Assembly: GCA_944332675.1 (NCBI GenBank)
Contig: CALVKJ010000002.1
Span: forward strand, 18-64,017
Length of the DNA: 64,000 bases
DNA from: an uncultured Bacilli bacterium
GTDB lineage: Bacteria; Bacillota_I; Bacilli_A; RF39; UBA660
Direction of reading: 5' to 3'
Positions 9,816 through 44,099 of the stretch are shown here, one piece after another. Each line of letters begins with the position of its first letter. Position 1 is the first letter of the stretch. The translations under genes were made by a program, and so were the position numbers. The notes under the pieces are model-generated. The model worked only from the letters and a program-made list of their open reading frames with translations, was not told the origin of the DNA and made no database searches.

Positions 9816-10553
9816 CTAATCTTCCTTCTTTAGTTTGTTATTGTTTCCGGTAATTAAAGCTAAATAACCATTTAAGCTATGTAAATCCTTTCGCATAGCA
9901 ACAATTTTATCAGCTCTAGACATAATTCTTCCCTCAATATAAAATGATCTTCTTAAAGAATAGTGTCCAACTTTACCAATTAAAGTTGAAGCTTTCATAA
10001 TTTTTTTATATTTTTCATCTAACAAGTCATATCTATCTTGATTGTTTAATTCTAAATCCGTATCATCAATTGCTCTAACTGGCAATGGATACATATGATG
10101 AATAATTCCATCAATAATTATTAAAGCATTATGACGATCAGAAAAAAATTCTGGAAACCAAGTTATGGCATTAGTAACAGCTTCAATCGGATGAATAAAG
10201 CCATGTTTATTTTTAAATTTTTTATCTTTAGATTTTAAATTATTTTGCCAAGGCTCTTCATATAAATCATGAAACATTGCAATATATATCGCAACATTTA
10301 GGTTAATAAAATCAAATTTTTTTCCTCGTTTTTTAAGTTTCGTTATCAATTTATATGTAACAATAGCATCACATAAAATGTGCTCTCCGATGGTTTTACA
10401 ATCATGATGCCAATAAGGAGCTTTAGTTCTTTTAATGAATTCTTTATGATAACAAATTGGTCTTATTATGTTCCATAGTTTTTTTACATTGTATCCAGTC
10501 AATTTATACTGTTTACAAAAAAACTTGTATTTTTCATAGATTTCTTTTTTCAT
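9816..10553 (-). CDS. HD-domain phosphohydrolase-like protein
   Basis: HHD..GEH and MFHDLYE histidine/aspartate motifs. The internal ATG (M5) has a GAGG RBS; the track start is 10565. Confidence 0.45.
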   Translation of the reverse strand: MKKEIYEKYKFFCKQYKLTGYNVKKLWNIIRPICYHKEFIKRTKAPYWHHDCKTIGEHILCDAIVTYKLITKLKKRGKKFDFINLNVAIYIAMFHDLYEEPWQNNLKSKDKKFKNKHGFIHPIEAVTNAITWFPEFFSDRHNALIIIDGIIHHMYPLPVRAIDDTDLELNNQDRYDLLDEKYKKIMKASTLIGKVGHYSLRRSFYIEGRIMSRADKIVAMRKDLHSLNGYLALITGNNNKLKKED

Positions 10554-10668
10554 AAGATGCCTCATAAAAATTATATTATATAATTGCTTTTATAGCAAAT
10601 CAAATAGTTAATTATCGTTTCTATTCTTGACAGTAATGCATATCTTATATAGAAAGGAGGTTTATAAT

Positions 10669-11607
10669 TTGAACAATTACGAAAGAGCTGTTAAAAAAGT
10701 TCAGTGTGCTGGTGTAAGTGAGCCATGTTGTTGCTGCTTTGGCCCCACCGGTCCGACAGGCCCAGCAGGTCCAGCTACAATTACGGCAGGCTTAACTGTA
10801 ACAACTGCTCCAGGAACCCAAGCTGAAGTAACAAATGTTGGTACTAGTGAAAATGCTGTATTAAGATTTGCAATTCCAGCGGGAGCCACAGGTGCCACAG
10901 GTGCAACTGGTCCGACAGGCCCAACAGGTCCACAAGGAATTGCTGGTACTACTGGTGCCACTGGAGCAACCGGAGCTACAGGCCCAACAGGACCAACAGG
11001 TCCAGCAGGAAATAGTACAACTGGTGCTACAGGTCCAACAGGTCCCACTGGAGCAACTGGAGCCACAGGTCCAACTGGTCCTACAGGAGCCACAGGAGCT
11101 ACTGGACCAACAGGAGCAACTGGAGCTACGGGTCCAACTGGTCCTAGTGTAAATTTAAGCATTGGAACAGTAACTACAGGAGCAACAGCCTCTGCGACTA
11201 TAACGGGTGTTTCACCAAATTTCACTTTAAATTTAGTATTGCCAATTGGTGCCACAGGTGCAACAGGCCCAACCGGAGCATCGGGAGCTACAGGTGCAAC
11301 AGGTCCAACAGGAGCATCAGGAGCTACAGGTGCAACAGGTCCAACAGGAGCATCAGGAGCCACAGGTCCAACAGGCCCAACAGGAGCATCAGGAGCCACA
11401 GGTGCAACAGGTCCAACCGGAGCATCGGGAGCCACGGGTCCAACAGGTCCAACCGGAGCATCGGGAGCCACTGGTCCAACAGGTCCAACAGGAGCATCGG
11501 GAGCCACTGGTCCAACAGGTCCAACAGGAGCATCGGGAGCAACCGGACCAACAGGTCCAACAGGCCCAACAGGAGCAACCGGACCAACAGGTCCAACAGG
11601 CCCATAA
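10669..11607 (+). CDS. collagen-like triple-helix repeat protein (GXT repeats), no globular C-terminal domain
   Basis: Long runs of [22 protein letters not shown] interrupted by a short non-collagen segment ([34 protein letters not shown]). An AAAGGAGG RBS lies 9 nt before an in-frame TTG at 10669; the track start 10627 lacks an RBS. Confidence 0.8.
11234..11604. repeat. near-identical tandem 9/18/27-nt collagen-coding repeats
   Basis: Repeated GGTCCAACAGGAGCATC(G/A)GGAGC(C/T)AC(A/T/G) units. Locally GC-rich relative to the AT-rich flanks. Confidence 0.85.
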
Positions 11608-20402: not shown

Positions 20403-21161
20403 ATGTCTAGATATAAATATGTATTATTTTCAATAATTACTTTTGGATTATTTACATTATCAGCAAATGCAGCTAGCTGTAGTTATGAACAAAGGGCTGA
20501 ATTAAATAGTGAAATATCCAATATTACTGCCAACTATGAAGTAATTGAAGTGCCACTTGAAGAAGGAGCAACTCCTCCGGACGCTTTATTAGAATCAGAA
20601 GAGGAAGAATATACATGGATGGTAGAAGCTCTTCAAATAAATATACTAAATTTAACAGAAAATGTTTATGTTGAAGTTACTAATAATTACGACAACCAAA
20701 CTACCGTATATAATTATTCTGATACAGATAATGGAAATATTGCTATAGAATGGAGAACTCTTGGAGAACTAGTAACTTATACTATAAGAGTTTACGCATC
20801 TAGCGCTACTGATTGTGCTGATACATTATTAAGAACCTTACGAGTATCATTGCCAAGGTATAATGACTATGCTACATATGCAGTTTGTGATCAGGTTCCA
20901 GATTATTATTTGTGTCAACGATACGTATTTTTTGATCAAGTAGATTTTAACGAGTTTTCGACCAAAGTTTTAGCGGAAATCGAAAGAGTTGAACAAGAAG
21001 AAGAACAAAACAATGAAGAAGATACCACTTGGTATGAAGAGGTTGGTAATTTTATAAGCGAACATAAAACACCGATAATAATTGGCGTGGTATCTATTTT
21101 AGTTATAGCGGGGGTTATAGTTGTAATAGTAGTAATAAGACGTAGGAGAAGTGAAATATGA
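20403..21161 (+). CDS. secreted protein with C-terminal TM anchor (first gene of filament operon), function unknown
   Basis: Signal peptide (..FTLSANA/AS), acidic segments, and a C-terminal TM plus RRRRSEI stop-transfer tail. ATGA overlap with the next gene. Confidence 0.6.
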   Translation: MSRYKYVLFSIITFGLFTLSANAASCSYEQRAELNSEISNITANYEVIEVPLEEGATPPDALLESEEEEYTWMVEALQINILNLTENVYVEVTNNYDNQTTVYNYSDTDNGNIAIEWRTLGELVTYTIRVYASSATDCADTLLRTLRVSLPRYNDYATYAVCDQVPDYYLCQRYVFFDQVDFNEFSTKVLAEIERVEQEEEQNNEEDTTWYEEVGNFISEHKTPIIIGVVSILVIAGVIVVIVVIRRRRSEI

Positions 21162-24100
21162 AAAAGTTTTTAAAAATTTTAGCAGTTTTTGTAGTATTTT
21201 TCTTTAGTATAAATTCAGCTGAGGCTTTTAGTACTGATACATCAATTGTGTATACTAAAACTAGAGCTGATACAATCAGAATTAACAGTTTAAGGCTTAC
21301 TAACGGTAGTAGTAGCAAAAGTTATTCTACTTACCTTTACAATATGGTGGGTAATGGTGAAACTTATATAACTTATTGTATGGACCCACATAAACCAGCA
21401 GCTACTTATTATACGTTGGACCGTATTTTAGGAGATGCTTCCTATTCTGGTGGAGTTAGAGCATTTGACTATGGGATGTTGGAAATACTTAAACATGCAT
21501 ATACGCAAATTAACAATGAATTTACTACTAGTGATGCAACACCAGAAACCACTCCTGATCCTTTTGTTACAACACTTACTGGTGAAAAACTTTACGCTGC
21601 AGCCAGAATAGCTATTGTATCTTTGAACTCAGCGGTATTCGGCTGGGCTGGTAGAGGTTTAAATGACCAAAGCATGAGAGCAACAGCATCTTCTTATTTA
21701 ACTCGTGGTACATATTGGGCACAATGGCGTGAAGATATTGCTGTTTTTACGGGAACTACTGGTACCACTCCAAGTGAAAGATATAAACAAATAATTAATA
21801 GAAATGAACAATACTATACTTGGTATATGAGTGATTGGGATTTTACTGGTTGGTCTTATGGCAATGATGCTTATGATGTAATTTATGCAGCCAAAGAACT
21901 TTTTGATATTGGTTTGGATGCTGCTGTAGATTTCGTTGAAAATGGCCGTGTTGAATCAAGCATAAGTGGTAGTGTTACTTCAACTGTTCAAGATGGTCAA
22001 AGAACCGAAGATGAAGTTCAAGAATACGTATATATTAATATGGATCTAGTAGACTTTGCGGAAGATGCATATGTCAATAACTTTAATTTCACTTGTAGTA
22101 ATTGCTCAAGTAGTGGTGTAACATACGATTACATGGAATATTACAATGCTGAAAATGAATGGGTAAGATTAACTTCTGATGTTGATATTTCTAAAGTATT
22201 AACACCAGATGAAGATGGCATAAGAAGTGGGACAGTAAGAATCAGAGTTCACTTTACTAAACAAGTATTAGATGAAGAAAATTGTAGCAATGCTTCATTT
22301 ACTGTAACTTACGATTATTATGATCCTAATAAACAATATATTGGAGCTTTATTAAAAAACAAAAATGGTGATTATCAAAGAATGCTTGTTATTGATGAAG
22401 TTTCTGGTGATGTTAATTCCGATGGCATTCCTGGATCTGTTGGTTGTGCTAATCCTGTTTGTGATACACAATTATCAGTTCCAATTTGTAGTGATGATGA
22501 AGACGAAGCAATATCAGAAATTTATGCACCAGAAAATATTAAAAAATGCGTTTTAGATAATCAAGACGATGCTGGAAATAATTATAATTTAGTTGAAGAT
22601 TCTGGTGGAGTTTCTGAAGATAATGCATATTGTCAAGTTTTCTGTAAAGAAGATTACTTTGATGTAATTCAAGAAGAAGGCGGAAATGTCCTTGGTGGTA
22701 TTAAATTGAATCCTGAAATAGAAGATGTTAACTGTGGTGGATATTTCCAATTAACAGCTCACGTAGAAGGTAAGAAAGATTGCTATACTAGTGGCGGAAC
22801 TGAAGATAAAGAAATAAATAGGGAACAATATATTGCCGATATAACAGAAGCTCAAATAACAATGATTAATGCATACAATGAATATTTAAGATGGCAAACT
22901 GCATATGATAGTGTTCCAGAAACAGATAGCAATAAATATCACTCTCTTGAAACAGACCCTTATACTTGTTGCCCTGAGCCACCTGCAACTGGAAGTTGTA
23001 GTTGTGGTTGTGGTATTGATGGATATTGTGTAGGATATAATATCAGCGGAGAAGTTACAGGTTTCTCTTATAGTGATAATGGAGATGGAACGTTAACAAT
23101 TAGTAGAAACCAAACTTTGTCATATAGTTATACAGATGATGGCGGAAGATCAGCAAGTGGCTGTGGTGGAAGTTGTAGTTCTGGATCAACTTCAACATTA
23201 AAAAGGAACCTAAAAGATGATTATTTAGATCCAGCTATAGATGCTTTAAATACTGCAATTAGTAAATATGAACAAATAATTGCTAGCTATAACTCTTGTA
23301 CTACAAATTGGACAAATGAATATCCTTTTGAACAAAAATTGAGTTTCTACTATAGCGAATATCAAGGAAATGAAGATTATAGTCCTTATTACGATTTAAT
23401 TTCTGCAACTGGCGATCCTGATTTATATTATCTTGATCCTGTTGATGAATCATTAGTTGAAGAATATGAAATTGAAATTTGTTTAGATGGTACAACATCA
23501 GAATATGAATGTGAAGGTAGACAATATAATTATGAAGAAATGGATGTTACATTAGGAACTTATAATTATTCTCAAGATTATTCTGAAGTATTCGAACATC
23601 AAGATTATATAAAGTGTAGTGAAAGCGGTTGCTCAATCGATCAAGATGCTTATGTTTCAAATGCAACATTCGTAAAAAAGACTGTTAAAAAATCACAAGA
23701 TTATATAACACCAACTGTGTTCTATCAAATTGAAGCGAATGGACGTATTACTGTAAATAGTGGTTATACTGGAAATGCTTTAACTTTAGATGCACTAATT
23801 AATGCTTTACCAATATCTACTCGTGCTACTGGTGGTGGAGTCTTCAAATTAATGCTTGAAGATTTAGGTGAATTCTATGACCCAAGTGATGCTGTAACTC
23901 AAGCGGATAACTTAGGTAGATTAATAGACTATGGTAGATCGGAAGTTGATGGAGTTAACCACGTTAGAGGAGATAACTACGATAAGAGTGTAGCAGTTGC
24001 TGTAGGAAGAGAAGGAATTGAAACATTTACTGGTGATTACACTTGCTACTACTACTCTGATTGTCGAACTGAAGACTGTCCAGATTGCGACTTTGTCTGT

Positions 24101-24727
24101 GAAGAAGGAGAATGTGAATGGGTATACTGTCCAGATTGTGAATTTGATTGTGTAAACTGTATTTTCAATTTAGATGAATTACAGATAAACTTTAAACCAA
24201 TATCTACTGTAGATGTCGAATCTGCTAATAGAGATTTAGGTTACAACTGGAATGTTAATACAACCCTTGAAGCTCTGGAATTATTGCGAGATAAAGCATC
24301 ACTTACTATTCAAGAAATAGAAACAGAAAATGAAACAATTTACAATAAGACTGGTGATGATTCAGAATTAGACTTTAGTATTAGATTAAATTCTGAAATT
24401 ATCAACTATTTAAAAGAATACAATGGATCTGTTGAAGACGAGGGTGGTTATGCAAATGACTCACTAACTTGCTATTCTGCAACAATTGATGGTAAGAATT
24501 TTGCAAATATCTTCTGTTATAGTGATGTATTAGATGATTTGTATGATCAATATGAAGATCAAATAACATTTGCACCAGGAAGAATTTCTAGAGGTCAAAG
24601 AAATGTAGATTCTGATGGTTCAAGTAATGCCAATGCAAATGGTTATTGGTCATTATGGTCTGGATGGACAGAATCTGAAAAAGTAAATGGTCAATACTCT
24701 GTTATTGGTGGACCATCATGGAAATAG
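21158..24727 (+). CDS. 1189-aa secreted Cys-rich protein (candidate filament-associated adhesin), function unknown
   Basis: Signal peptide MKKFLKILAVFVVFFFSINSAEA/FS; no LPXTG and no C-terminal TM. Cys clusters: CCPEPPATGSCSCGCGIDGYC and DCPDCDFVCEEGECEWVYCPDCEFDCVNC. Confidence 0.65.
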   Translation: MKKFLKILAVFVVFFFSINSAEAFSTDTSIVYTKTRADTIRINSLRLTNGSSSKSYSTYLYNMVGNGETYITYCMDPHKPAATYYTLDRILGDASYSGGVRAFDYGMLEILKHAYTQINNEFTTSDATPETTPDPFVTTLTGEKLYAAARIAIVSLNSAVFGWAGRGLNDQSMRATASSYLTRGTYWAQWREDIAVFTGTTGTTPSERYKQIINRNEQYYTWYMSDWDFTGWSYGNDAYDVIYAAKELFDIGLDAAVDFVENGRVESSISGSVTSTVQDGQRTEDEVQEYVYINMDLVDFAEDAYVNNFNFTCSNCSSSGVTYDYMEYYNAENEWVRLTSDVDISKVLTPDEDGIRSGTVRIRVHFTKQVLDEENCSNASFTVTYDYYDPNKQYIGALLKNKNGDYQRMLVIDEVSGDVNSDGIPGSVGCANPVCDTQLSVPICSDDEDEAISEIYAPENIKKCVLDNQDDAGNNYNLVEDSGGVSEDNAYCQVFCKEDYFDVIQEEGGNVLGGIKLNPEIEDVNCGGYFQLTAHVEGKKDCYTSGGTEDKEINREQYIADITEAQITMINAYNEYLRWQTAYDSVPETDSNKYHSLETDPYTCCPEPPATGSCSCGCGIDGYCVGYNISGEVTGFSYSDNGDGTLTISRNQTLSYSYTDDGGRSASGCGGSCSSGSTSTLKRNLKDDYLDPAIDALNTAISKYEQIIASYNSCTTNWTNEYPFEQKLSFYYSEYQGNEDYSPYYDLISATGDPDLYYLDPVDESLVEEYEIEICLDGTTSEYECEGRQYNYEEMDVTLGTYNYSQDYSEVFEHQDYIKCSESGCSIDQDAYVSNATFVKKTVKKSQDYITPTVFYQIEANGRITVNSGYTGNALTLDALINALPISTRATGGGVFKLMLEDLGEFYDPSDAVTQADNLGRLIDYGRSEVDGVNHVRGDNYDKSVAVAVGREGIETFTGDYTCYYYSDCRTEDCPDCDFVCEEGECEWVYCPDCEFDCVNCIFNLDELQINFKPISTVDVESANRDLGYNWNVNTTLEALELLRDKASLTIQEIETENETIYNKTGDDSELDFSIRLNSEIINYLKEYNGSVEDEGGYANDSLTCYSATIDGKNFANIFCYSDVLDDLYDQYEDQITFAPGRISRGQRNVDSDGSSNANANGYWSLWSGWTESEKVNGQYSVIGGPSWK

Positions 24728-24740
24728 GGGTGAATAGTTA

Positions 24741-25148
24741 ATGAAAAATGCTTTGTGGGGATACTGGTTAGTATTACTTGGAATATTCGTAGTTGTTATA
24801 ATGTTGCTTGTGCAAAATTTAACAACTTCGTCTACCCAAGATTACTATTTAATAAAAGAAATTACGGAAGCAGCTTTAATAGATGCAGTTGACTATTCTT
24901 ACTATCGTACTTTCGGTGAAATTAAAATAAATAAAGAAAAGTTCTATGAAAGTTTTATTCGAAGATTTTCGGAAAACGCTTCAGTTACTACCGACTATAC
25001 AATTAATTTTTACGGAGTTTATGAAGCACCGCCAAAAGCTAGTGTAGAAATTAAAAGTAAATCAAACACATTCAATGTTGTAGGAGATTCGGAATCCTTT
25101 GATATGACTGAAAGAATTGATGCTATTATTGAAGGAAATGCAATATAA
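24741..25148 (+). CDS. pilin-like/pseudopilin-like protein (short leader plus N-terminal hydrophobic helix)
   Basis: MKNALWG then YWLVLLGIFVVVIMLLV, followed by a ~100-aa soluble domain. Same architecture as ORF 32590. Confidence 0.45.
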   Translation: MKNALWGYWLVLLGIFVVVIMLLVQNLTTSSTQDYYLIKEITEAALIDAVDYSYYRTFGEIKINKEKFYESFIRRFSENASVTTDYTINFYGVYEAPPKASVEIKSKSNTFNVVGDSESFDMTERIDAIIEGNAI

Positions 25149-25169: not shown

Positions 25170-25943
25170 ATGGGAAATTTAATAAATACATTTAAAAGAT
25201 TTCTTACAAATAAAACGACAGTTACCATTTTAGGGATAGTAATAGGGATAGCAGTATTATTTTTCTTCTATATGTATCGTGTAAATAATGCTGTTAACCC
25301 TAGAGAAATCCCGGTTGCTACTAGAACAATCGCTGCAACTGAAGAAATTACGCGTGATGATATTAAAATGGTTAGCATCGGAAGTAGTTTTTTAAATGAT
25401 GCTGATGTATATACTAGTGCAGATTCTTTAGTTGGAAAATATGTAAATACTGGTACATCTATTCCAGCTGGAGGAATGTTTTATACTAGCCAAGTGGTTG
25501 AAAAAGAAGAATTGCCAAATTCAATATTTGATGAAATACCTGATGGCTATACAATTTATCAGTTAAGAGTAGATAATGAATCGACTTATGCTAATTCGAT
25601 TTATCCTGGTGATAGAATTGACTTATGGATGTCAACAACGCAAGATGGTTTGGTTTATTATGGTGAATTTATCCACGGAATTGAAGTTTTAGCAGTTCGT
25701 GATTCTAGCGGTGAAAATGTTTTTGATGTAACGAGTGGAAGAACACCAGCTTGGTTACTGTTTGCAGTTCCTACCGATATGTATCGTTATTTAAAAGTTG
25801 CTGAATTTTTATCAGGAGTAACTATAACACCGCTTGTTAGAAATACCAATTATAATTCTGATGTTGGTTCAACTGAAATTACCAATGAAGTATTATTACA
25901 AATGATCGAAAGCAGAATTATGGATATGGGTGGAAGTTACTAG
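25170..25943 (+). CDS. CpaB/RcpC-like Flp pilus assembly protein, copy 1
   Basis: N-terminal TM, then PREIPVATRTIAATEEITRDDI (SAF-like) and a C-terminal beta domain. Paralogue of the next ORF. Confidence 0.65.
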   Translation: MGNLINTFKRFLTNKTTVTILGIVIGIAVLFFFYMYRVNNAVNPREIPVATRTIAATEEITRDDIKMVSIGSSFLNDADVYTSADSLVGKYVNTGTSIPAGGMFYTSQVVEKEELPNSIFDEIPDGYTIYQLRVDNESTYANSIYPGDRIDLWMSTTQDGLVYYGEFIHGIEVLAVRDSSGENVFDVTSGRTPAWLLFAVPTDMYRYLKVAEFLSGVTITPLVRNTNYNSDVGSTEITNEVLLQMIESRIMDMGGSY

Positions 25944-25952
25944 GAGGATAAA

Positions 25953-26741
25953 ATGGGAAATATTTTAAAGAATATTAAAAATGCACTTTTAAATAGAAAT
26001 ACAGTAACTATATTAGCCGTTTTAGCGGGAGTAGTAGTTTTATGGTTTTTCTATAATATGACAGTAAATAATGCCATTAATCCTCAAAGAGTTCCTGTAG
26101 CAACAAGGAACATAACTGCTAAAGAAATGATAACTTCTGAAGATTTTGAGTACGTTGAAATTAATAGTGGATTTTTAGAAAGTGCCAATATTATTACTAA
26201 TGCTAGTCAACTTGTTGGTTACTATGTTAAAAATGAAACTTCGATTGTTGAAGGAGCAATGTTTTACCGCGAACAAGTTGTTGAAAGAAGTGAACTTAAA
26301 GAAAGAGAACAAGAAACTCTACCAGATGGTTACACGATATATTGGCTTCAAGTTGATAACACAAGTACATACGCTAATTCAATTTATCCTGGTGATAAAA
26401 TAGACTTATGGTTGAAAGCTGAAGTTGATGGTCAATTTATTTATGATGAATTTATCAATAGTATCGAAGTAGTTTCTATAAAAAATTCATCTGGAGCTAA
26501 TGTGTTTGATACTCAAACTTCTAGTGAACCAGCTTGGTTATCATTTGCAGTAACTTTCGAAATGGCTGAATACTTAGAGTTAATTGATAGAATAACTGAA
26601 AATAGAATGGAAGTATATCCAGTACCAAGAAATAAATTGTATACAACTGAAGGAGCTGAAGTATCTTATTCGAATGAACTATTATTACAAATGATTGATA
26701 GTTATGCCGGATTTACTCCAGGATCGACAACAACCGAATAA
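25953..26741 (+). CDS. CpaB/RcpC-like Flp pilus assembly protein, copy 2
   Basis: Same layout as copy 1. Shared blocks include DGYTIYWLQVDNTSTYANSIYPGDKIDLW. Confidence 0.65.
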   Translation: MGNILKNIKNALLNRNTVTILAVLAGVVVLWFFYNMTVNNAINPQRVPVATRNITAKEMITSEDFEYVEINSGFLESANIITNASQLVGYYVKNETSIVEGAMFYREQVVERSELKEREQETLPDGYTIYWLQVDNTSTYANSIYPGDKIDLWLKAEVDGQFIYDEFINSIEVVSIKNSSGANVFDTQTSSEPAWLSFAVTFEMAEYLELIDRITENRMEVYPVPRNKLYTTEGAEVSYSNELLLQMIDSYAGFTPGSTTTE

Positions 26742-26769: not shown

Positions 26770-27876
26770 GTGAATGATGCTATATTTTCACAAATAGATT
26801 TTGGACCTTTAAAAGAGTTTTTAGAGGAAGACAACGTAACTGACGTATCATATTCAAATGGTGGTCAAGTTTGGCTAAAAACTCTTGATAAAGGTGTTTA
26901 TCGCGTAGATAGACCAGAAATAAATAATGCTTTGATGGAAAAGCTTGCTTTTCAATGCTCTAATGTAATGGGTAAAACATTTAATATGGCTCATCCTTTT
27001 TTGGATGCCGAATCAGCTGAGCTTCGTCTTAACTTTGTTCATGAATCAATTGCAACTAATGGTATAGCTTGTGTTATCCGTAAGACGCCTGCCAAAATCC
27101 GTCTTAACAAAGATAAACTTATTAATGAACAATATGTAACTGAAGATTTACATGACTTTTTAATGACTTGCGTTGCAGGGCACTGCAACATAATTGTAAG
27201 TGGAGAAACTGGTTCTGGTAAAACTGAACTTGTTAAATACTTAGCCAGTCATACTAAAGAAAATGAAAAAATTATAACTATTGAAGATACCTTAGAACTA
27301 CACTTAGATAAAATATTCCCACATAGAGATATTGTTGCTATGAAAACAAATAACATTGCCTCATATTCTGATGTTTTGGTAACCTGTATGCGGCAAAACC
27401 CACGTTGGATTTTACTATCCGAAGTTCGTTCTGCTGAAGCGGTTACGGCGGTTCGTAACTCTATATCATCAGGACATAACATCATATCTACAATTCACTC
27501 GGATAGAGCTTTAAATATTCCAATGCGTATGTACAGTTTGCTAGAAAGTAGCCAAGATATTGAACAATTCCTAAATTCAATTCACCGATACGTTCAAATT
27601 GGTATTCACGTAAAAGGTTATATGAGTAAAGAATTAGGCAGATTTCAAAGAGAAATTATTGAAGTTGTTGAGTTCTATGTCGATGAAAACAACGAAGCCA
27701 AAGCCAATATAATATTTAAAAAGAGTCTAGATGGTAAATATAGTTTTAATAATCCAACTAAATATTTAATCGATTACCTTGGAGTTCAAGGGGTAGAGAT
27801 GAAACAAGATTATTTTGAAAAGTCTAAAGGCTCAGTAACAGATATACAACCAGAAAATGCCATTGAAAGTCTATAA
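26770..27876 (+). CDS. TadA/CpaF/VirB11-class type IV filament secretion ATPase
   Basis: Walker A GETGSGKTE, Asp box ITIEDTLEL, Walker B RQNPRWILLSEVR, His box GHNIISTIH. The in-frame GTG at 26770 has a GAGGTGG RBS; the track start 26695 overlaps the previous gene. Confidence 0.85.
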   Translation: MNDAIFSQIDFGPLKEFLEEDNVTDVSYSNGGQVWLKTLDKGVYRVDRPEINNALMEKLAFQCSNVMGKTFNMAHPFLDAESAELRLNFVHESIATNGIACVIRKTPAKIRLNKDKLINEQYVTEDLHDFLMTCVAGHCNIIVSGETGSGKTELVKYLASHTKENEKIITIEDTLELHLDKIFPHRDIVAMKTNNIASYSDVLVTCMRQNPRWILLSEVRSAEAVTAVRNSISSGHNIISTIHSDRALNIPMRMYSLLESSQDIEQFLNSIHRYVQIGIHVKGYMSKELGRFQREIIEVVEFYVDENNEAKANIIFKKSLDGKYSFNNPTKYLIDYLGVQGVEMKQDYFEKSKGSVTDIQPENAIESL

Positions 27877-27891: not shown

Positions 27892-28797
27892 ATGCAAACA
27901 CTTACAGAACTGGTAATTTTACTTATAATAGCTGTAATTGTCCTAATATTTCGGAGAAATCCTGGAGAAAATGTTTATAAATTTGTAGTAGGCAATGTTA
28001 CGCGAATTTATGATAAATATGCTCCGTATTCCTTCAAAATGGTTCGGGAAAAAGCTATTGAATTAGGGCAAGAGTATAATGCACGTCAATATTTAACCCA
28101 AGTTATAATATTTGGGGGTGTCGCAGCCTTAATAGGGTATTTTTACTTCTACAGTATTATAATAGCTGTTATATATGCCATTATTGCTATTGTGTTTATT
28201 CCTTATCTTGCCTACTTACGATGTCAAAGAGTATATAGTGAATATATATTTGAACAAATTCAAACTTATACAACTAACGTTATCATGGAATTTAATACAA
28301 CTCAAAGCTTTGTTAAATCTCTTGAAGGAGTTAGAGATTCTGGAATATTAGAAAATCCGGTATTAGATGATGTTAAAAAGATGATCGATATGTCTTATCA
28401 AAATGGAACAATTGATGAATCTTTACAATATTTCAATGATAAATATCCTTATTATATGGTAAAGAATATGCATCAATTATTCTTGCAAATTACCAAAGAA
28501 GGTGCAAGAGATTCTGGACAAGCTCTAGAAAATATGTCATTAGATATCGATGCCCTAGTTGAAGGTGTATACCGCGATCAAATGGATAGAAAAAACTTCC
28601 ACGGAAGGTTCATTAGGTTTGGTCTAATTCTTTATTTATTAGTGGTTGTTTTAAGATATTTGCTTGGTGAAGAAAATTATATAGCTCTATTAGATATGTG
28701 GTATGTTCAACTTATACTCCATGCCGTAGTAATAATTAATGCTTTTTTCCTAGTTTCGGGAGAAAAATATTATAATGAAGATGTGGGGGTAGAATAA
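27892..28797 (+). CDS. TadB-like platform protein (T2SS-F-type domain)
   Basis: N-terminal TM, central TM pair, a cytoplasmic helical domain and C-terminal TMs. Sits directly after the ATPase gene. Confidence 0.6.
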   Translation: MQTLTELVILLIIAVIVLIFRRNPGENVYKFVVGNVTRIYDKYAPYSFKMVREKAIELGQEYNARQYLTQVIIFGGVAALIGYFYFYSIIIAVIYAIIAIVFIPYLAYLRCQRVYSEYIFEQIQTYTTNVIMEFNTTQSFVKSLEGVRDSGILENPVLDDVKKMIDMSYQNGTIDESLQYFNDKYPYYMVKNMHQLFLQITKEGARDSGQALENMSLDIDALVEGVYRDQMDRKNFHGRFIRFGLILYLLVVVLRYLLGEENYIALLDMWYVQLILHAVVIINAFFLVSGEKYYNEDVGVE

Positions 28798-29585
28798 TGC
28801 AAATAGAAATTATTATTATCGCTGTTATTGTTTTTGTTATTATGACTATCGGCGGACAAATAAATATCAATCAAATGATTAGTGATAATCAAATGCTTTT
28901 CTTAAAGCTTAAAGAAAGTGATTGGGATTTTTTTGTCAGAGCTAGATATGGTAACAGTGTAAACCCTGATGTATTATTTAATAAAAGAATCAAGAACGCT
29001 CTTATTGTAATGGTTTTAGCATTTTTCTTTATGATTCAAGATTTAAATGCTGTTAAAGTTTTAATCATATTTGTTCTCGGTATATTTATATTTAAAATGC
29101 CTTACAATGACATAAAGAAATTTTATAATCAACATATGCATCAAATTGATGCTATGTTACCCCATTATTTAAAGAGCTTGGAAATATTAATACAACACTA
29201 CACTGTACCGGTGGCTATTGGTAAGTCAATGGCAGATGCTCCGGAAATATTTAAAGAAGGATTGCAGGAAATGATCGATGCCATAAATTCTGGTGATGAT
29301 TCCATAGAGCCTTATATGGCTTTTGCTCGTAAATATCCTGTAAGAGATTCAATGCGAATGATGCGGCTTTTATATCGGCTTAGTTTAGGTCGTCAAGAAA
29401 GAAAGCAAGAACAAATTTTAACATTTTCAAGATCGATTTCTAGTTTACAACAAAAAGCCCGGGAAACAAGATATAAAAATCGTTTGGAAAAGATGGAAAG
29501 TAAAACTATGAGTATGCTTATTACAACTGGGTTAGGAGTAATGATTTTACTAATTTTAGCCGTAATGCAACTTATGGGTGCTTAA
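28797..29585 (+). CDS. TadC-like platform protein (T2SS-F-type domain)
   Basis: Same topology as the TadB-like ORF. Contains a helical domain (LPHYLKSLEILIQHYTVPVAIGKSMADAPEIFKEGLQEMIDAINSGDD). Start overlaps the previous stop. Confidence 0.6.
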   Translation: MQIEIIIIAVIVFVIMTIGGQININQMISDNQMLFLKLKESDWDFFVRARYGNSVNPDVLFNKRIKNALIVMVLAFFFMIQDLNAVKVLIIFVLGIFIFKMPYNDIKKFYNQHMHQIDAMLPHYLKSLEILIQHYTVPVAIGKSMADAPEIFKEGLQEMIDAINSGDDSIEPYMAFARKYPVRDSMRMMRLLYRLSLGRQERKQEQILTFSRSISSLQQKARETRYKNRLEKMESKTMSMLITTGLGVMILLILAVMQLMGA

Positions 29586-29612: not shown

Positions 29613-29641
29613 TTGATATTTAATAAGAAATAAGGTATAAT
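29613..29641 (+). promoter_or_regulatory. internal promoter for the pilin genes
   Basis: TTGATA-17 nt-TATAAT in the only sizeable intergenic gap of the operon, followed by an AAGGAGG RBS. Confidence 0.55.
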
Positions 29642-29671
29642 AAAGATAGGAATAAGGAGGAATTTTAATTT

Positions 29672-29947
29672 ATGAAAGAAGCGACTGGAGAATTAAACAT
29701 GACTGTTGTTACTGTTGTTGCTATAGCAGCTGTTGCAGCATTCTTTTATGCATTTGTTTGGCCAGCAGTTAAAAACCAAATAAATCGTAATACCTACTGT
29801 GCTGCTGCAGTTTCTTGTGGTGAACCAGATGCAGATGGAAATCGTACTTGTCAATATGTTGATGAAGATGGTGATTTACAAGATGTACTTTGTCCTGCAG
29901 ATACTACTACAGGCGGAACTACAGGCGGAACTACAGGTGGTAATTAA
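29672..29947 (+). CDS. pilin-like protein 1 (91 aa, Cys-rich, TTGG-repeat tail)
   Basis: MKEATGELNM leader-like N-terminus, a 22-residue hydrophobic helix, 4 Cys, and a C-terminal TTTGGTTGGTTGGN. Confidence 0.6.
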   Translation: MKEATGELNMTVVTVVAIAAVAAFFYAFVWPAVKNQINRNTYCAAAVSCGEPDADGNRTCQYVDEDGDLQDVLCPADTTTGGTTGGTTGGN

Positions 29948-29976
29948 AGATTAAATTATTAAGTGAGGTAATTTGA

Positions 29977-30222
29977 ATGAAAGAGGCAACCGGGGAACTA
30001 AATATGGCAGTTGTTGTAGCAATATCAATTGCAATCTTGGCGGCCTTTTTTTTCAGTTATTTATGGCCGATTATTAACAATAATTTCTATAGAACATCAC
30101 AATGTGATAAAGCAGCCTGCGACTGCAGTAATATAGAAGTTGTCAATGATGTTGAATATTGCACTCCTTGCTATATAAATGGTGAAGAGATTCCAGGTAT
30201 GAAATGTATTTTTAAAGGGTAG
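29977..30222 (+). CDS. pilin-like protein 2 (81 aa, Cys-rich)
   Basis: First 10 residues identical to pilin 1 although encoded with six synonymous differences. Hydrophobic helix and 7 Cys in the C-terminal half. Confidence 0.6.
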   Translation: MKEATGELNMAVVVAISIAILAAFFFSYLWPIINNNFYRTSQCDKAACDCSNIEVVNDVEYCTPCYINGEEIPGMKCIFKG

Positions 30223-30229
30223 TGGTTAA

Positions 30230-31804
30230 ATGAAAGAATCAGTAAGTGTTACTACAATTTTTCAAATTGTTATACTATTTATTCTATTGTTCACCGCAAT
30301 AATGTGTTTAACAATCAATAATTCTAATGCTTTTGGAGTTAGAGATGAAATTATCAACATTATTGAAATGAACAATGGAAACTATTTGAGTGATGATAAT
30401 TCTGGTTATTTGTCTGAAGAAATTGTTGATGCTATATCAGCTGCTGCCTATAGAACTACAGGTATTTGTGATGCTGAATATACTGGCTTTGAAAGAAATG
30501 GTCAACCAGTTGGATCTGGAGATCTGGCATCAGTATGCATTAGAGAAGTTAGCGTAACTGATGGAATAGATTCTTATTTAGATGAATTATTGGGAGATAC
30601 AGTAGATGCTGAGTTTGTTGAAGGTAAATATTATCAAATAGTTTTGTTTTACCAATTAGATTTACCAGTAATGCGTCAAGTTTACAATTTCCAAACAAAA
30701 GGTGAAACTAAAATCATCTATGAAGAAACTCGTAGTGTAAATACTAGTGGTTCAACAAGTAGTAACAATGGTACTTTGTCAGATATTTTTGATAATAATT
30801 CAAATAATAATACATCTACAGAAACAGGAAATAATAATTCGTCAGGAAATAACAATGAAACGAATAATGGAAACAATATTATGGGGGAGCAATTAGCTTG
30901 TCGTGAAGGTTTAGTTGAATCAGATTTAATAAGTGGTATTCAAGGTGTAGCAATGGCTGTTGTACCTATATATCCCAGTTTAAATGATACAAATAATACC
31001 AGATCGACAAGATTAGATGGAACGAAGTTTTCAATTTTAGGTAATGATGGTACAGCCAACGGTGGAGGCCGTTGGGCCATAATGTATGATGGCGAATGTG
31101 GCTGGGTTGATTCAACTTATATGGCTATTGATGCTACAGATTATTTACCATCTAATGTGAGATTTAATATCACTAATGCAAGTTCTAGTGCTTATTATGC
31201 TTGGGATGGCACGAGTGATGTATGGATTCCCAATTTAACTGGCAAAAGACTATATGATAGTTCCCAATATAACAATTCTTTTGTACCATTAACATTTTCA
31301 TTTGCTCAGAGTTTACGTAATATTGCTCAAAATAATTCAAACAGACAATTTCTTATAAATGATGCTTACAGACCATATTCTGTAACAGTATTAGCTAGAA
31401 ACACTTTAAGCAGTTTAATTAGTAGTAATTCCAATGTTTTAAATGTCGGAATGTCTGGCTGGGGAACTGGCTGGTTTTTAGCTCAAGGGGTTTCTGCTCA
31501 TAATACTGGCTGTGCTGTTGATATTACTTTTGCTGATCTTTCCACAGAACAAATAAGAAATATGCCAAGTGCTATGCACGATTTAAGCAAAAGAGCAGCT
31601 ATTTATACTTATTCTGGTAGTGGTACATACCGTACGGAGTTTACTAACTCTCAAGCATCTACTTTACATAGTATTATGACTGCTGGTGGCTTAGATGACT
31701 TAGCTAGTGAATGGTGGCATTATCAAAGCGATTCTTGCTATAATACAATCCGTAGTCATTCTAGTACAAATGGTGGGCAAAACATTAGTTTTTACGACTT
31801 GTAA
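30230..31804 (+). CDS. fusion protein: TadE-like pseudopilin module + Asn/Ser-rich linker + SH3b-like domain + M15 (VanX/VanY-type LAS) peptidase
   Basis: The N-terminal ~165 aa is paralogous to ORF 32590 (YYQIVLFYQLDLPVMRQVYNFQTKGET vs YYQIIVFYRFNLPVIGDVMTFQVEGTT). The C-terminus has INDAYRPYSV, SAHNTGCAVD and EWWHY zinc-peptidase motifs. Confidence 0.7.
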   Translation: MKESVSVTTIFQIVILFILLFTAIMCLTINNSNAFGVRDEIINIIEMNNGNYLSDDNSGYLSEEIVDAISAAAYRTTGICDAEYTGFERNGQPVGSGDLASVCIREVSVTDGIDSYLDELLGDTVDAEFVEGKYYQIVLFYQLDLPVMRQVYNFQTKGETKIIYEETRSVNTSGSTSSNNGTLSDIFDNNSNNNTSTETGNNNSSGNNNETNNGNNIMGEQLACREGLVESDLISGIQGVAMAVVPIYPSLNDTNNTRSTRLDGTKFSILGNDGTANGGGRWAIMYDGECGWVDSTYMAIDATDYLPSNVRFNITNASSSAYYAWDGTSDVWIPNLTGKRLYDSSQYNNSFVPLTFSFAQSLRNIAQNNSNRQFLINDAYRPYSVTVLARNTLSSLISSNSNVLNVGMSGWGTGWFLAQGVSAHNTGCAVDITFADLSTEQIRNMPSAMHDLSKRAAIYTYSGSGTYRTEFTNSQASTLHSIMTAGGLDDLASEWWHYQSDSCYNTIRSHSSTNGGQNISFYDL

Positions 31805-32589: not shown

Positions 32590-33036
32590 ATGCGGGAAGT
32601 AACTGGATCTACGTGGGTATTTCAATTGATGATAATTTTTATTCTTATCTTCGCCTGCTTTTTATGTCTAGTTATAAACTACTCTAAAGCTTATCGTGTT
32701 AAGAATGAAGTATTATCGATAATAGAAAAATATGAAGGTATATCTTCGACCTCAGCGGGAATAATTAATAACTATTTAAGAGGAGAATCATATGTAACAA
32801 CAGGATCTTGTCCTGATGGTTATTATGGTATCAAACTTGATAATGATGGTTATGAAGTTGCTCGTAGTGGTCAAAAATATAGTTATTGCTTTAGAGATGA
32901 ATATACAAACGATGGAATGATTTACTATCAAATAATTGTATTTTATCGTTTTAATCTCCCAGTAATCGGAGATGTTATGACATTCCAAGTTGAAGGAACT
33001 ACGGAATCATTCCAAGGAAATGTGGATCGTTATTAG
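32590..33036 (+). CDS. TadE-like pseudopilin
   Basis: MREVTGSTWVFQLMIIFILIFACFLCL N-terminus. Paralogous to the N-terminal module of ORF 30230. Confidence 0.5.
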   Translation: MREVTGSTWVFQLMIIFILIFACFLCLVINYSKAYRVKNEVLSIIEKYEGISSTSAGIINNYLRGESYVTTGSCPDGYYGIKLDNDGYEVARSGQKYSYCFRDEYTNDGMIYYQIIVFYRFNLPVIGDVMTFQVEGTTESFQGNVDRY

Positions 33037-33051
33037 AAAGGAAGATAAAAG

Positions 33052-34044
33052 ATGAACGTAATTATTTCTAACAAATATCAAGCATTGCTGGCTAATTTAG
33101 ATATTGATGTAATAAAAAGTATTAATGGTGAATTTACAGTAGATGAGTTAATTGCTCAATTTTCCAATTTTTATTACAATAAAATGATAATAGATATTAC
33201 TGCTATCAAAGGTTATCAAGATATTAATGTTATTCAACAACTTTCTGTAAACTTTGATATGTCTAAAGTTATTCTTCTTTTAGATGATTCAGAAACCGTT
33301 AATTCTCCAATGTATTTATCGCAATTAGTATCAATGGGTATTTATAATTTTGCTACCAATGTAAATGTTATTAAGTTCTTAATAGATAACCCTAACACTT
33401 ATAAAGACGTAGCTAGTTATCATAACATCAATGGCTTTAAAAAACCGGCGTTAAATGAAAATGTTGTAGATAATACCAAAGGAAAAATAGGACAAAAGAT
33501 TATTGGTTTTAAAAATGTAACAGATCATGCTGGAGCAACAACTTTAGTTTATTTATTAAAACTTCATTTAGAAAAAAATTATAAGGTAAAAGCAGTAGAA
33601 GTCGATGGTAATGACTTTATATTCTTTAATGATGATTCTCTAGAAAGTGTTTCTAGTGTTACATTTAATGATTTTTTAGCCCAAAATATTAATTGCGACG
33701 TTATCTTAGTAGATTTAAATAATAGTTCTGTTGAAAACTATTGCAACGATATTATTTATTTAATTGAACCAGGACGTATCCAATTAAATAAATTAATAAG
33801 AAAAGATAATGAAATATTTGAAAAACTTAAAAACAAAAAGATTGTTTTAAATAGAAGTGTTTTAAATGATAAAGATGTTGATGATTTTGAACGTGAAAGT
33901 GGTAGTAAAGTATTTTATAACTTACCATACCTTGATGATAAATTAGATAATCAACCAATTATTAACAACTTTTTATCTACTTTAGGTTTTAGTAGAGTAG
34001 AAGAAAATAAGGGCGGTTCAGGATTATTTAGTATATTTAAATAA
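33052..34044 (+). CDS. TadZ/CpaE-like protein (receiver-like N-domain plus ParA/MinD-like domain with degenerate Walker A)
   Basis: N-terminal alpha/beta receiver-like segment. The C-terminal segment IGFKNVTDHAGATTLVYLL..VILVDLN occupies the position of the deviant Walker A/B of CpaE-type ATPases but lacks the GKT lysine. Confidence 0.45.
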   Translation: MNVIISNKYQALLANLDIDVIKSINGEFTVDELIAQFSNFYYNKMIIDITAIKGYQDINVIQQLSVNFDMSKVILLLDDSETVNSPMYLSQLVSMGIYNFATNVNVIKFLIDNPNTYKDVASYHNINGFKKPALNENVVDNTKGKIGQKIIGFKNVTDHAGATTLVYLLKLHLEKNYKVKAVEVDGNDFIFFNDDSLESVSSVTFNDFLAQNINCDVILVDLNNSSVENYCNDIIYLIEPGRIQLNKLIRKDNEIFEKLKNKKIVLNRSVLNDKDVDDFERESGSKVFYNLPYLDDKLDNQPIINNFLSTLGFSRVEENKGGSGLFSIFK

Positions 34045-34067
34045 TCAATTGAAGTGAGGTGCGTAAG

Positions 34068-34424
34068 ATGAGTTTTTGTTATAAGACTGCAGTTGTATGG
34101 CAGGTAATTGGTTATGTTTTTTTCATATTGAAAATAGTTATTCCAATGATTTTAATAATCTTAGGAATAATCGATTTTGGTAAAGCGGTTTTATCGAGTG
34201 ATGATAAATCGATAAAAGATGCCGCAATGACTCTTGCCAAAAGATTAATTGCAGGTGTCATAATATTCTTCATTCCAACTGTTATAAATGTCGTATTTAG
34301 TTATATTTCTGGTTTTAGTGAAGATATGCAAGCTGATGCAATGAATTGTATTAATTGTTTAACATCACCGAATGGCTCTTGTGATACAAGTTATGAAGGC
34401 GAAGTTTTTCCAACAGGAAATTGA
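34068..34424 (+). CDS. small 2-TM membrane protein with Cys-rich C-terminal tail, paralogue A
   Basis: Two hydrophobic helices separated by DFGKAVLSSDDKSIKDAA; tail NCINCLTSPNGSCD. The ATG at 34068 has a GAGGTG RBS. Confidence 0.55.
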   Translation: MSFCYKTAVVWQVIGYVFFILKIVIPMILIILGIIDFGKAVLSSDDKSIKDAAMTLAKRLIAGVIIFFIPTVINVVFSYISGFSEDMQADAMNCINCLTSPNGSCDTSYEGEVFPTGN

Positions 34425-34444: not shown

Positions 34445-34473
34445 TTGACTTTATTAAGTATATAAGGTAAAAT
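34445..34473 (+). promoter_or_regulatory. candidate promoter for paralogue B
   Basis: TTGACT-17 nt-TAAAAT upstream of an AGGGAGGAG RBS. Confidence 0.4.
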
Positions 34474-34501
34474 GAATGTATATAGGGAGGAGTGCTATAA
34501 T

Positions 34502-34861
34502 ATGGGAAATGTTGATAGTTTTTGTGCACAAACATCAGATATATGGCGTACAATCGGATATTTTTTATTAGTATTTAAAATTGTAATTCCTATTATCTTA
34601 ATAATACTAGGAATGGTTGATTTAGGAAAGGCTGTAATATCAAGTGATGATAAAGCTATTTCTAAAGCTGCAAAGTCATTATTAATGCGTGTAATTGCAG
34701 CTGTAGCAATATTCTTTGTACCAACAATAGTATCATTTGTTATTCAATTAGTTGGTGGTACTGAAGGCGATTATGATGTATGTGCAAAATGTATTTCAAG
34801 TCCAGGTGGCGAAACTTGTACAGATGCATATAACGAATTAAAAGAACTTACTGAAGACTAA
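34502..34861 (+). CDS. small 2-TM membrane protein with Cys-rich C-terminal tail, paralogue B
   Basis: Collinear with paralogue A (LIILGMVDLGKAVISSDDKAISKAA; tail CAKCISSPGGETCTD). The ATG at 34502 has an AGGGAGGAG RBS. Confidence 0.55.
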   Translation: MGNVDSFCAQTSDIWRTIGYFLLVFKIVIPIILIILGMVDLGKAVISSDDKAISKAAKSLLMRVIAAVAIFFVPTIVSFVIQLVGGTEGDYDVCAKCISSPGGETCTDAYNELKELTED

Positions 34862-34871
34862 TTAATAAATT

Positions 34872-34897
34872 ACCACGTTTTAATAACGTGGTTTTTG
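34872..34897 (+). terminator. rho-independent terminator ending the filament operon
   Basis: ACCACGTT-loop-AACGTGGT hairpin followed by TTTTT. Confidence 0.65.
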
Positions 34898-43760: not shown

Positions 43761-43991
43761 CTATTTTATAATTGATTTGGGATAAGGTTTTCTTTCGTCT
43801 GTTTTTCCCAGTAAATAGTCGATAGATGTGTCATAAAAAATTGCTAATTCATATAAGTAATTAATTGGTATTAGTCGCTTACCTATTTCGTATTCGCTAT
43901 ATTGCTGTTGCTTTATACCTAAAACACTAGCAACTTCACTTTGTTTTAAGTCTTTATCTTCTCTTATTTCCCTTAATCTTTGTATGTTCAA
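43761..43991 (-). CDS. XRE-family helix-turn-helix transcriptional regulator
   Basis: LREIREDKDLKQSEVASVLGIKQQQYSEYEIGKR is a typical Cro/C1 HTH. Divergent from the FN3 surface protein gene. Confidence 0.85.
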   Translation of the reverse strand: MNIQRLREIREDKDLKQSEVASVLGIKQQQYSEYEIGKRLIPINYLYELAIFYDTSIDYLLGKTDERKPYPKSIIK

Positions 43992-44029
43992 AATGTATCA
44001 CCTAATATAATTGTTACAAACAAAACAAT

Positions 44030-44065
44030 TTTTGTATTGATTATACAAAACATCTTTTGTATAAT
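44030..44065 (+). promoter_or_regulatory. promoter with overlapping palindromic operator candidate
   Basis: TTGATT-17 nt-TATAAT. The inverted repeat TTTTGTAT-5 nt-ATACAAAA spans the -35, and a third TTTTGTAT half-site overlaps the -10. Confidence 0.45.
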
Positions 44066-44099
44066 TGAAATATATTATAGAGTATATGGAGGAAATATA

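Follow-up and report, generated by a model that had tools for sequence, protein, structure and literature searches.

Candidate pilins with a near-invariant N-terminal decapeptide, probably belonging to a strongly diverged Tad-like machine of gut Bacilli

In a 64,000-nucleotide stretch of DNA from an uncultured Bacilli bacterium (contig CALVKJ010000002.1; the whole stretch is hereafter called the window), two tandem genes, here termed A and B, encode small proteins that both open with the decapeptide MKEATGELNM and continue with a hydrophobic stretch of 22 residues (residues 10-31). Our data suggest that these proteins are probably the filament subunits (pilins) of a chromosomal, strongly diverged Tad-like (type IVc-like) machine, which, as judged from sequence comparison, appears to be conserved across gut Bacilli and Erysipelotrichia. 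An initial annotation, made from the letters of the window, had already listed two tandem genes of 91 and 81 amino acids (aa), a common start followed by a hydrophobic helix of about 22 residues and a product A ending in TTTGGTTGGTTGGN; both open reading frames (ORFs) were confirmed on the forward strand together with these features. Its view of the products as pilin-like also stands, given the short hydrophilic leader that ends in Gly, the near-invariant N-terminal helix, the variable Cys-stabilised head and the surrounding ATPase/CpaB-like operon.

The distribution of conservation along the two proteins argues for a filament subunit. Mean pairwise identity within the family falls from 91% in residues 1-10 to 58% in residues 11-31 and 35% in residues 32-46. 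In an AlphaFold2 model with a mean predicted local distance difference test score (pLDDT) of 78 and block means of 85-95 over residues 11-70, a disordered segment (1-9) is followed by a helix (10-44), a beta-hairpin (57-63/69-75) and a disordered tail. A helix of this kind with a two-stranded hairpin is consistent with the "lollipop" fold of pilins, but in a minimal version, and the combination of an invariant N-terminal helix with a small, variable and exposed head characterises filament subunits. The leader itself is kept by selection at the protein level, as initially proposed: six codons differ between A and B within codons 3-9, all of them synonymously, which speaks against recent gene conversion, and the decapeptide is conserved throughout the family. 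Five of these differences affect the third position, as had been stated for all six, and the remaining one (TTA/CTA) the first.

For the C-terminal halves, the initial annotation had assumed that A and B are unrelated. This is refuted by an alignment of both types, which shows C43, C60 and C74 as invariant positions and A46 as an almost invariant one; the two halves are homologous and built on a common Cys scaffold. Their extreme ends are different, since type A has a polar low-complexity tail and type B the motif C-x-(W/F/Y)-K-G. The count of four Cys in product A was correct, whereas product B contains six (residues 43, 48, 50, 62, 65 and 77) and not seven. Throughout the family, 96% of the members have an even number of Cys, mostly four or six, which fits fully paired disulfides. 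The tail of pilin A is hypervariable within species: between conspecific strains that agree fully in pilin B, it differs by fewer repeats or a frameshift (TTAELPA...), as seen in the loci L085, L087 and L088 around positions 9900-9960.

Similarity searches retrieved 1896 clusters at 90% identity with pilin A as query and 123 with pilin B, and a profile search of 1.84 billion representatives yielded at least 588 clusters at 50% identity (E<=1e-3). Scanning one genome per species, we found at least 551 loci within Bacilli and Erysipelotrichia. With such numbers of homologues, the pattern is far beyond chance. Carriers include metagenome-assembled genomes (MAGs) of Bacilli, Erysipelotrichaceae, MAGs labelled Tenericutes or Mycoplasma sp. 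CAG:776/472, Coprobacillus sp. CAG:605, Candidatus Caccenecus and Ventrenecus, and one pilin A cluster stems from a MAG assigned to Thomasclavelia spiroformis. All members are unnamed and without Pfam domains, and they appear to form one unannotated family for which neither Pfam nor NCBIfam holds a model; the literature searched contains no description of an MKEATGELNM pilin family. For synteny, we compared 80 orthologous loci with about 10 kb on each side (1.31 Mb in total), at least 45 of which carry the pair in the order A then B. The locus in the window is chromosomal, with uvrA, uvrB, lgt, gltX, cysS and nusG nearby, and tblastn searches of plasmid and phage collections did not find pilin A.

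The conserved order of the 80 loci places the pilins inside a secretion operon (Table 1). It starts with an anchored protein of 250 aa, a Cys-rich protein of about 1200 aa, a DUF5411 protein and one or two CpaB-like proteins, continues with an ATPase, membrane proteins of 301 aa and then 262 aa and the pilins A and B, and ends with two accessory pilin-like proteins, a 330-aa protein and one to four small proteins with two transmembrane (TM) segments. The ATPase scores best on the VirB11, TadA and TrbB models and lower on ComGA; its start follows the gene call of sister contigs (368 aa), the mechanical ORF beginning at 26695. The CpaB-like proteins additionally match RcpC and TIGR03177 below the cut-offs. 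For the two membrane proteins, the connection runs through a plasmid of Priestia koreensis, where DUF5411, a SAF protein, AAA_31, CpaF/VirB11, a "type II secretion system F family protein" and a membrane protein are clustered in this order, in synteny with the window. The F-family protein of this plasmid itself matches PF00482 at E=3.4e-5, with 24.2 bits against a gathering score of 25.2. The 262-aa protein also aligns with its counterpart in a pLS20-type plasmid module (hhalign probability 84.6%, E=6.8e-6) and weakly with a T2SSF-family protein of B. badius (hhalign E=3.3e-4). Taken together, the ATPase, the CpaB-like proteins and the plasmid-bridged membrane proteins lead us to read the machine as a diverged Tad-like system.

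Table 1. Features of the candidate pilin operon, with positions in the window.
Feature	Position	Strand	Evidence or remark
Operon-proximal surface proteins	20403-24727	+	252 aa with signal peptide and C-terminal anchor; 1189-aa Cys-rich secreted protein
DUF5411 protein, N-terminally anchored accessory component	24741-25148	+	135 aa; MKNALWGYW; PF17424 E=5.3e-57
Two CpaB/RcpC-like proteins	25170-25943, 25953-26741	+	SAF 24.7 bits vs gathering score 21
CpaF/TadA/VirB11-type secretion ATPase	26770-27876	+	PF00437 (T2SSE) E=1.3e-28
TadB-like platform candidate	27892-28797	+	301 aa, polytopic; BLASTP E=4e-12 to Priestia plasmid "T2SS F family" protein
TadC-like platform candidate	28797-29585	+	262 aa; BLASTP E=4e-13 to neighbouring Priestia plasmid protein
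Sigma-70-type promoter of pilin operon	29613-29641	+	TTGATA-N17-TATAAT; 11/12 consensus match
Shine-Dalgarno sequence of pilin A	29654-29660	+	AAGGAGG; read from sequence
Putative pilin type A	29672-29947	+	91 aa; leader MKEATG, E7 putative +1, helix 10-44, 4 Cys, disordered Thr/Gly tail
12-nucleotide tandem repeat	29906-29937	+	ACTACAGGCGGA x2.7; encodes (TTGG)n tail of pilin A
Shine-Dalgarno sequence of pilin B	29965-29968	+	GAGG; read from sequence
Putative pilin type B	29977-30222	+	81 aa; leader as in A, 6 Cys, conserved C-terminal C-x-(W/F/Y)-K-G
First accessory (minor) pilin-like protein, fused to M15 D-Ala-D-Ala peptidase	30230-31804	+	PF01427 E=3.1e-13, residues 335-500
Second accessory pilin-like protein	32590-33036	+	148 aa; MREVTGSTW; paralogue of the 30230 protein by alignment
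Conserved 330-aa protein	33052-34044	+	in 77/80 loci; GxxxxxxAGATT motif
Two small two-TM, Cys-tailed proteins	34059-34424, 34472-34861	+	weakly VirB2/T4SS-pilin-like
Intrinsic terminator-like hairpin, end of pilin operon	34872-34892	+	sequence

The initial annotation had also placed the pilins behind a strong promoter of their own, TTGATA-17-TATAAT, and behind ribosome-binding sites, and all of these elements were recovered (Table 1). The promoter is among the three best promoter-like sites in 17 kb. However, such sites occur at chance frequency in this AT-rich stretch (98 found, 103 expected), so that the consensus match by itself proves nothing. The comparison of the window with the 80 loci (81 sequences) is more informative: exactly TTGATA-N17-TATAAT precedes the ATG of pilin A in 56 of the 81, in 54 distinct contexts with unconserved flanks and, in the tabulated loci, at a distance of 25-39 nucleotides. 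AGGAGG-type sites are found in nearly all orthologous upstream regions. At least about 25 of the 80 loci (by the synteny table, with five inspected) keep the pilin module apart from the ATPase module. The pilin module then begins at this promoter, comprises both pilins and both accessory pilins together with the 330-aa protein and the small two-TM proteins, and adjoins unrelated housekeeping genes (L011, L024, L031, L037, L076 and others). As a phylogenetic footprint, this makes a separate promoter for the pilins well supported; the existence of the proposed promoter is thus sustained by its conservation in 56 of 81 sequences, and its strength is presumed. A riboswitch in front of the pilins is absent, as no part of the window attains the gathering score of any Rfam family.

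With the operon in view, two further readings of the gene pair can be judged. Twin small Cys-rich products with an identical N-terminal leader and variable C-terminal parts could be the precursor forms of a two-peptide bacteriocin or of a signalling peptide, secreted by way of the neighbouring ATPase system. We rejected this reading on context and architecture and regard it as exceedingly improbable: the locus has no double-glycine leader, no peptidase-domain ATP-binding cassette transporter and no immunity or modification genes, the invariant part includes the 22-residue membrane helix that a leader would discard, the operon is of the secretion-ATPase/CpaB type, and the genes are a chromosomal core feature kept across hundreds of species. 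Besides, an identity with VirB2 was rejected, as the pilins have a single TM segment and match neither PF18895 nor PF04956, and the window contains neither VirB4 nor VirD4.

The mode of N-terminal recognition and processing is the most interesting point of this system. Among 327 pilin sequences, position 6 is Gly in 312, Ser in 11, Ala in 1 and Gln in 3, so that Gly, Ser and Ala together account for 99%; E7 is conserved in 96%, and positions 2-5 and 8-9 each in at least 96%. The initial annotation had pointed to related short leaders in other proteins of the operon, and these are all present (MREVTGSTW at 32590, MKESVSVTT at 30230 and MKNALWGYW at 24741). In the orthologues, the accessory proteins start with M(K/R)E(A/S)(I/V)G(G/S)TW(L/I)FQ and the DUF5411 proteins with M(K/R)ES(Y/F)WGYW, in which the tag is shifted by one residue. 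Furthermore, the profiles of the pilins and minor pilins align over the N-terminal 26 residues (hhalign E=9.4e-5). From these starts and the profile alignment it follows that four protein families of the operon have M-(K/R)-E-(A/S)-x-G ahead of a membrane helix in common, which mirrors the class III signal peptides common to major and minor type IV pilins. As in class III signals, a hydrophilic leader ending in Gly precedes a hydrophobic tract, with the polar residues E-L-N lying between the two. The restriction of position 6 to Gly, Ser or Ala suits a standard A24 prepilin peptidase whose gene would lie elsewhere. As had been noted from the beginning, the motif corresponds to neither the Flp site (G/XXXXEY) nor that of type IVa pilins (G/FTLIE), for there is no Pfam Flp match and no Glu at +5. 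Accordingly, we rejected a Flp/Fap pilin (no PF04964 match at E<=0.1, no G/XXXXEY) and a ComGC-type competence pilin (no KGF/TLxE motif, no Pfam or NCBIfam pilin match, a lower score of the ATPase on the ComGA model).

Several observations weigh against assigning the pair to a Tad-like filament. The putative filament is known here from genes alone. Scans of both pilins against Pfam and NCBIfam returned nothing meaningful, the pilin profile hit only transmembrane-helix noise among the PDB sequences (ATP synthase b, PsbJ), and Foldseek found no match in the PDB for the AlphaFold2 model at E<=0.001. Neither the 301-aa nor the 262-aa membrane protein has a direct match in Pfam or the PDB, and Pfam scans of all aligned members of both families gave no T2SSF match; their assignment to the platform is transitive, via the plasmid homologues. 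An hhalign comparison of the two revealed no paralogy, with shallow profiles (effective number of sequences, Neff, about 1.6), a homologue search with the 301-aa protein returned only close relatives of at least 83% identity and no Pfam-annotated bridge, and an AlphaFold2 model built from close relatives was unusable (pLDDT 54.6). Concerning the tag, Glu at +5, which is otherwise characteristic of bacterial type IV pilins, is absent, the residue there being Thr11 or Ala11, and the conserved acidic residue stands at +1 (E7). Strict and loose motif scans detected no GxGDxK-type polytopic ORF in the window or the 80 loci. Finally, three B-type clusters have Gln6, and the decapeptide as a whole is near-invariant, more so than the membrane helix; neither finding is accounted for by simple A24 cleavage.

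The missing similarity to known pilins and the missing peptidase gene at the locus would also suit proteins that do not polymerise at all, namely small bitopic membrane or surface proteins acting as stators, anchors or chaperones for the Cys-rich secreted protein or the ATPase complex, and the positive charge C-terminal of the helix (K34, R39) makes the topology ambiguous. However, such proteins would not be expected to show the pilin-typical gradient from an invariant N-terminal helix to a hypervariable head and tail, to come as tandem paralogues next to accessory pilin-like genes with a common N-terminal module, or to be placed behind a dedicated conserved consensus promoter and a strong ribosome-binding site that imply a high copy number. 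We therefore consider a non-polymerising function very unlikely.

A more serious question is whether the decapeptide of a genuine filament subunit is removed by an A24 peptidase at all. For a cleavage after Gly6 speak Gly, Ser or Ala at this position, the six-residue leader as in type IVa pilins and the conserved "mature" start ELNMTVV; against an ordinary cleavage, or at least left without explanation by it, are the near-invariant K2-E3-A4-T5, the Gln6 variants, the Glu at +1 and a parallel in pLS20-type conjugation operons (see below). In line with the initial annotation, which had suggested either a different processing specificity or a lack of cleavage, the tag could instead be retained, or cut by an unrelated enzyme, and serve as a sequence-specific assembly tag that is read by the machine. 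This would account for positions 2-9 each being 95-99% invariant, above the membrane helix, which A24 specificity does not demand, for the Gln6 variants, for the lack of an A24 motif in the 81 loci and for a model in which the helix begins at residue 10 and not at residue 7; moreover, the 47-aa tandem pilin-like genes of the pLS20-type operons keep the Gly-less start MLDQN(A/T)DR. In contrast, the 99% share of Gly, Ser and Ala at position 6 resembles the -1 site of a peptidase, and a charged uncleaved extension is hard to accommodate in the core of a pilus. In addition, prepilin peptidase genes are often distant from pilus loci, of which about 10 kb on each side were covered. Weighing both sides, we regard a retained or otherwise processed tag as rather unlikely; if true, it would define a prepilin-peptidase-independent branch of type IV-like filaments.

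Returning to pilins of a diverged Tad-like machine, the following mechanism can be envisaged. The dedicated promoter, which is conserved, would provide high expression of the pilin module. The pilins would insert with the N-terminus inside and the C-terminus outside via their invariant hydrophobic helix, and the motif M-(K/R)-E-(A/S)-x-G, which is shared within the operon, may act as a family-specific class-III-like signal for the machine. An A24 prepilin peptidase encoded elsewhere might then cut after Gly6 and release the mature start ELNMTVV, a step that, as judged from the alignments, we put forward with slightly less than even confidence; in this product, the charge of the N-terminal amine would be balanced by Glu1 in place of the canonical Glu5. 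The CpaF-type ATPase, together with the TadB/C-like platform, would extrude a filament whose core is formed by the conserved helices, with the small variable heads and the repeat tail of pilin A exposed on the surface, and the heads would most likely hold two or three disulfides. Adhesion or cell-cell contact is the likely role; DNA uptake or secretion is also conceivable.

Apart from these components, the operon encodes several proteins with a less obvious function. The surface-protein pair (252 and 1189 aa) is syntenic in 33 of the 80 loci and neither protein has a family match; the 1189-aa protein may be an adhesin. In the first accessory protein, the N-terminal region of about 170 aa is homologous to the minor pilin family with the start M(K/R)EAIGG. 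The orthologues elsewhere are mostly about 150-180 aa long and lack the M15 domain (VanX-type), and one sister contig has the gene in two pieces. The M15 domain may represent a built-in peptidoglycan remodelling activity for the passage of the filament. A Pfam scan of the accessory pilin family gave no TadE or DUF4320 match, and the TadV, Flp and TadE/F models have no match at the locus. The 330-aa protein matches nothing in Pfam or the PDB; its position and motif would possibly make it a TadZ/CpaE-like degenerate P-loop protein. The small two-TM proteins match PF18895 (E=9.1e-5; 22.9 bits against a cut-off of 26.6) and, with E=2e-3, the pilin-like conjugal transfer model NF045849 (Mbov_0395), in both cases below threshold; elsewhere they number one to four per locus, and some carry large N-terminal domains as fusions. 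The 301-aa membrane protein is represented by at least 7991 clusters at 90% identity, the top 120 of which are 83-98% identical, and it is 69-83% identical across loci whose pilins share just 40-65%. Some copies lie on contigs of about 1.0-1.2 Mb, and this, in combination with the extreme conservation, suggests small genomes and a core function.

Further observations concern other parts of the window. A 910-aa protein (43980-46712) contains several fibronectin type III repeats and, after its N-terminal transmembrane segment, the sequence GATYAYFTA, which we take to resemble SipW/TasA-type signal peptides. An ORF at 10627-11607 consists almost wholly of collagen-like G-x-T/G-P-T triplets, is overlapped by a long antisense ORF and represents the only GC-rich stretch of the window (GC 0.40 compared with about 0.29). 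The adjacent ORFs at 57617-58492 and 58505-58954 are paralogous, the second being truncated, and their N-terminal parts of about 140 aa are nearly identical (MNNLVKDETNIE.LIYEIRGVQVMLDSDLA...).

Besides its size, this family is of interest for its invisibility: it is annotated wholly as "hypothetical", and motif-based pilin finders that require Glu5 would miss it. Its hosts are abundant and poorly known gut lineages, i.e. Erysipelotrichales and the Bacilli MAGs labelled Tenericutes or Mycoplasma CAG. If the proteins form surface filaments, these would be prime candidates for the attachment to host or partner cells, with the variable heads as exposed antigens. Besides, an invariant tag with Glu at +1 offers a clean test of what a type IV machinery must recognise in its subunits.

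Compared with the known Tad/Flp systems (Caulobacter CpaF-PilA, Aggregatibacter Flp1 and the Tad pilus of Bifidobacterium breve), the operon shares a CpaF/TadA-like ATPase and a SAF-domain CpaB-like protein, two polytopic membrane proteins of half size immediately behind the ATPase, small and often tandem pilins, and accessory pilin-like proteins with a common N-terminal module. In contrast to these systems, there is no PF04964 or TadE match, Glu is at +1 and Tyr6 is missing, and the head of the pilins is a Cys-stabilised beta-hairpin, Flp being little more than a helix. The locus also lacks TadV, the equivalents of TadB/C and TadZ are unrecognisable to Pfam, and DUF5411 and VirB2-like small proteins are present. 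We are probably dealing with new pilins of a variant of the Tad-like machine that lie outside the Flp family and do without Glu5. With type IVa pilins such as PilA of P. aeruginosa (MKAQKG/FTLIE), they have in common the six-residue leader ending in Gly, the hydrophobic helix of about 22 residues, a conserved N-terminus and a disulfide-bonded, variable C-terminal head. They differ in the absence of Phe1 and Glu5, the tiny head (about 45 residues), the near-invariant leader itself and a machine that is Tad-like and not of the PilB/PilC/PilMNOPQ type. The archaeal type IV pilins and archaellins, with class III signals cut by PibD/FlaK/EppA, likewise have Gly, Ala or Ser at -1 and do not require Glu5; there, however, Lys or Arg is usual at -2, while the charged residues are at -5 and -4 here, the hosts are bacterial and no homology was detected. 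For Tad systems, an archaeal origin from Epd-like pili has been proposed.

Other gut Firmicutes, too, have been reported to carry divergent Tad-like clusters whose pilins are unrecognisable (PMC9523054, PMC11680825). A DUF5411-containing "secretion-related operon" was predicted in Roseburia, Ruminococcus and Eubacterium (Miller et al. 2022, PMC9523054), and TANB77 has a divergent Tad-like pilus cluster of which one minor pilin was tested on immune cells, the evidence being otherwise computational (PMC11680825). Both resemble our locus in their occurrence in gut Firmicutes and in combining a CpaF ATPase with a GspF-like protein and with several pilin-like, single-TM genes that defy annotation, and the former also in DUF5411. 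Unlike our locus, they belong to Clostridia and have a recognisable platform protein, and neither paper describes the MKEATGELNM pilin family (PMC9523054, PMC11680825). The classical tad locus of Bulleidia, which includes tadV, is a different system (PMC12786226).

In this context, the closest plasmid homologues of the ATPase are found in pLS20-type and other Firmicute plasmids (31-33% identity for the pLS20-type, 34% for the top match, a Priestia plasmid). The pLS20-type operons contain an adhesin, an ATPase and TadC-like and DUF4320-like proteins, as seen at 10992-12647 of L082 (B. subtilis plasmid), where the ATPase is fused to a TadB-like domain, and at 11713-13297 of L083 (Paraclostridium plasmid); next come two tandem 47-aa pilin-like genes and then a VirB2-like protein of 75-79 aa just before VirD4. 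No description of this Tad-like module was found in the literature searched. According to a 2021 paper on pLS20, Gram-positive type IV secretion systems (T4SS) seem not to develop pili, and the terms "VirB11", "Tad" and "Flp" occur nowhere in its text (PMC8092201). The similarities to our locus comprise the TadC-like homologue, the accessory protein of DUF4320-like type, a tandem of two tiny pilin-like genes whose N-terminus is conserved and non-canonical, the VirB2-like small protein downstream and the adhesin gene upstream. On the other hand, the pLS20-type modules are plasmid-borne and lie beside VirD4 and VirB4, whereas the locus in the window is chromosomal and without T4SS genes, and their 47-aa pilins have no Cys and start with MLDQN(A/T)DR, which is kept between the Bacillus and Paraclostridium plasmids without any Gly. 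It is a bold and, in our estimation, unlikely idea that the MKEATGELNM proteins and the MLDQNxDR mini-pilins together constitute a filament branch that is recognised by its tags and assembled without a canonical A24 peptidase. If true, type IV filaments would lose one of their four supposedly universal components, and the structure would rank among the most conserved ones on the surface of gut Bacilli that are uncultured and have small genomes. The kinship to a Tad-like module in conjugation operons bears, in turn, on the use of pili in Gram-positive conjugation.

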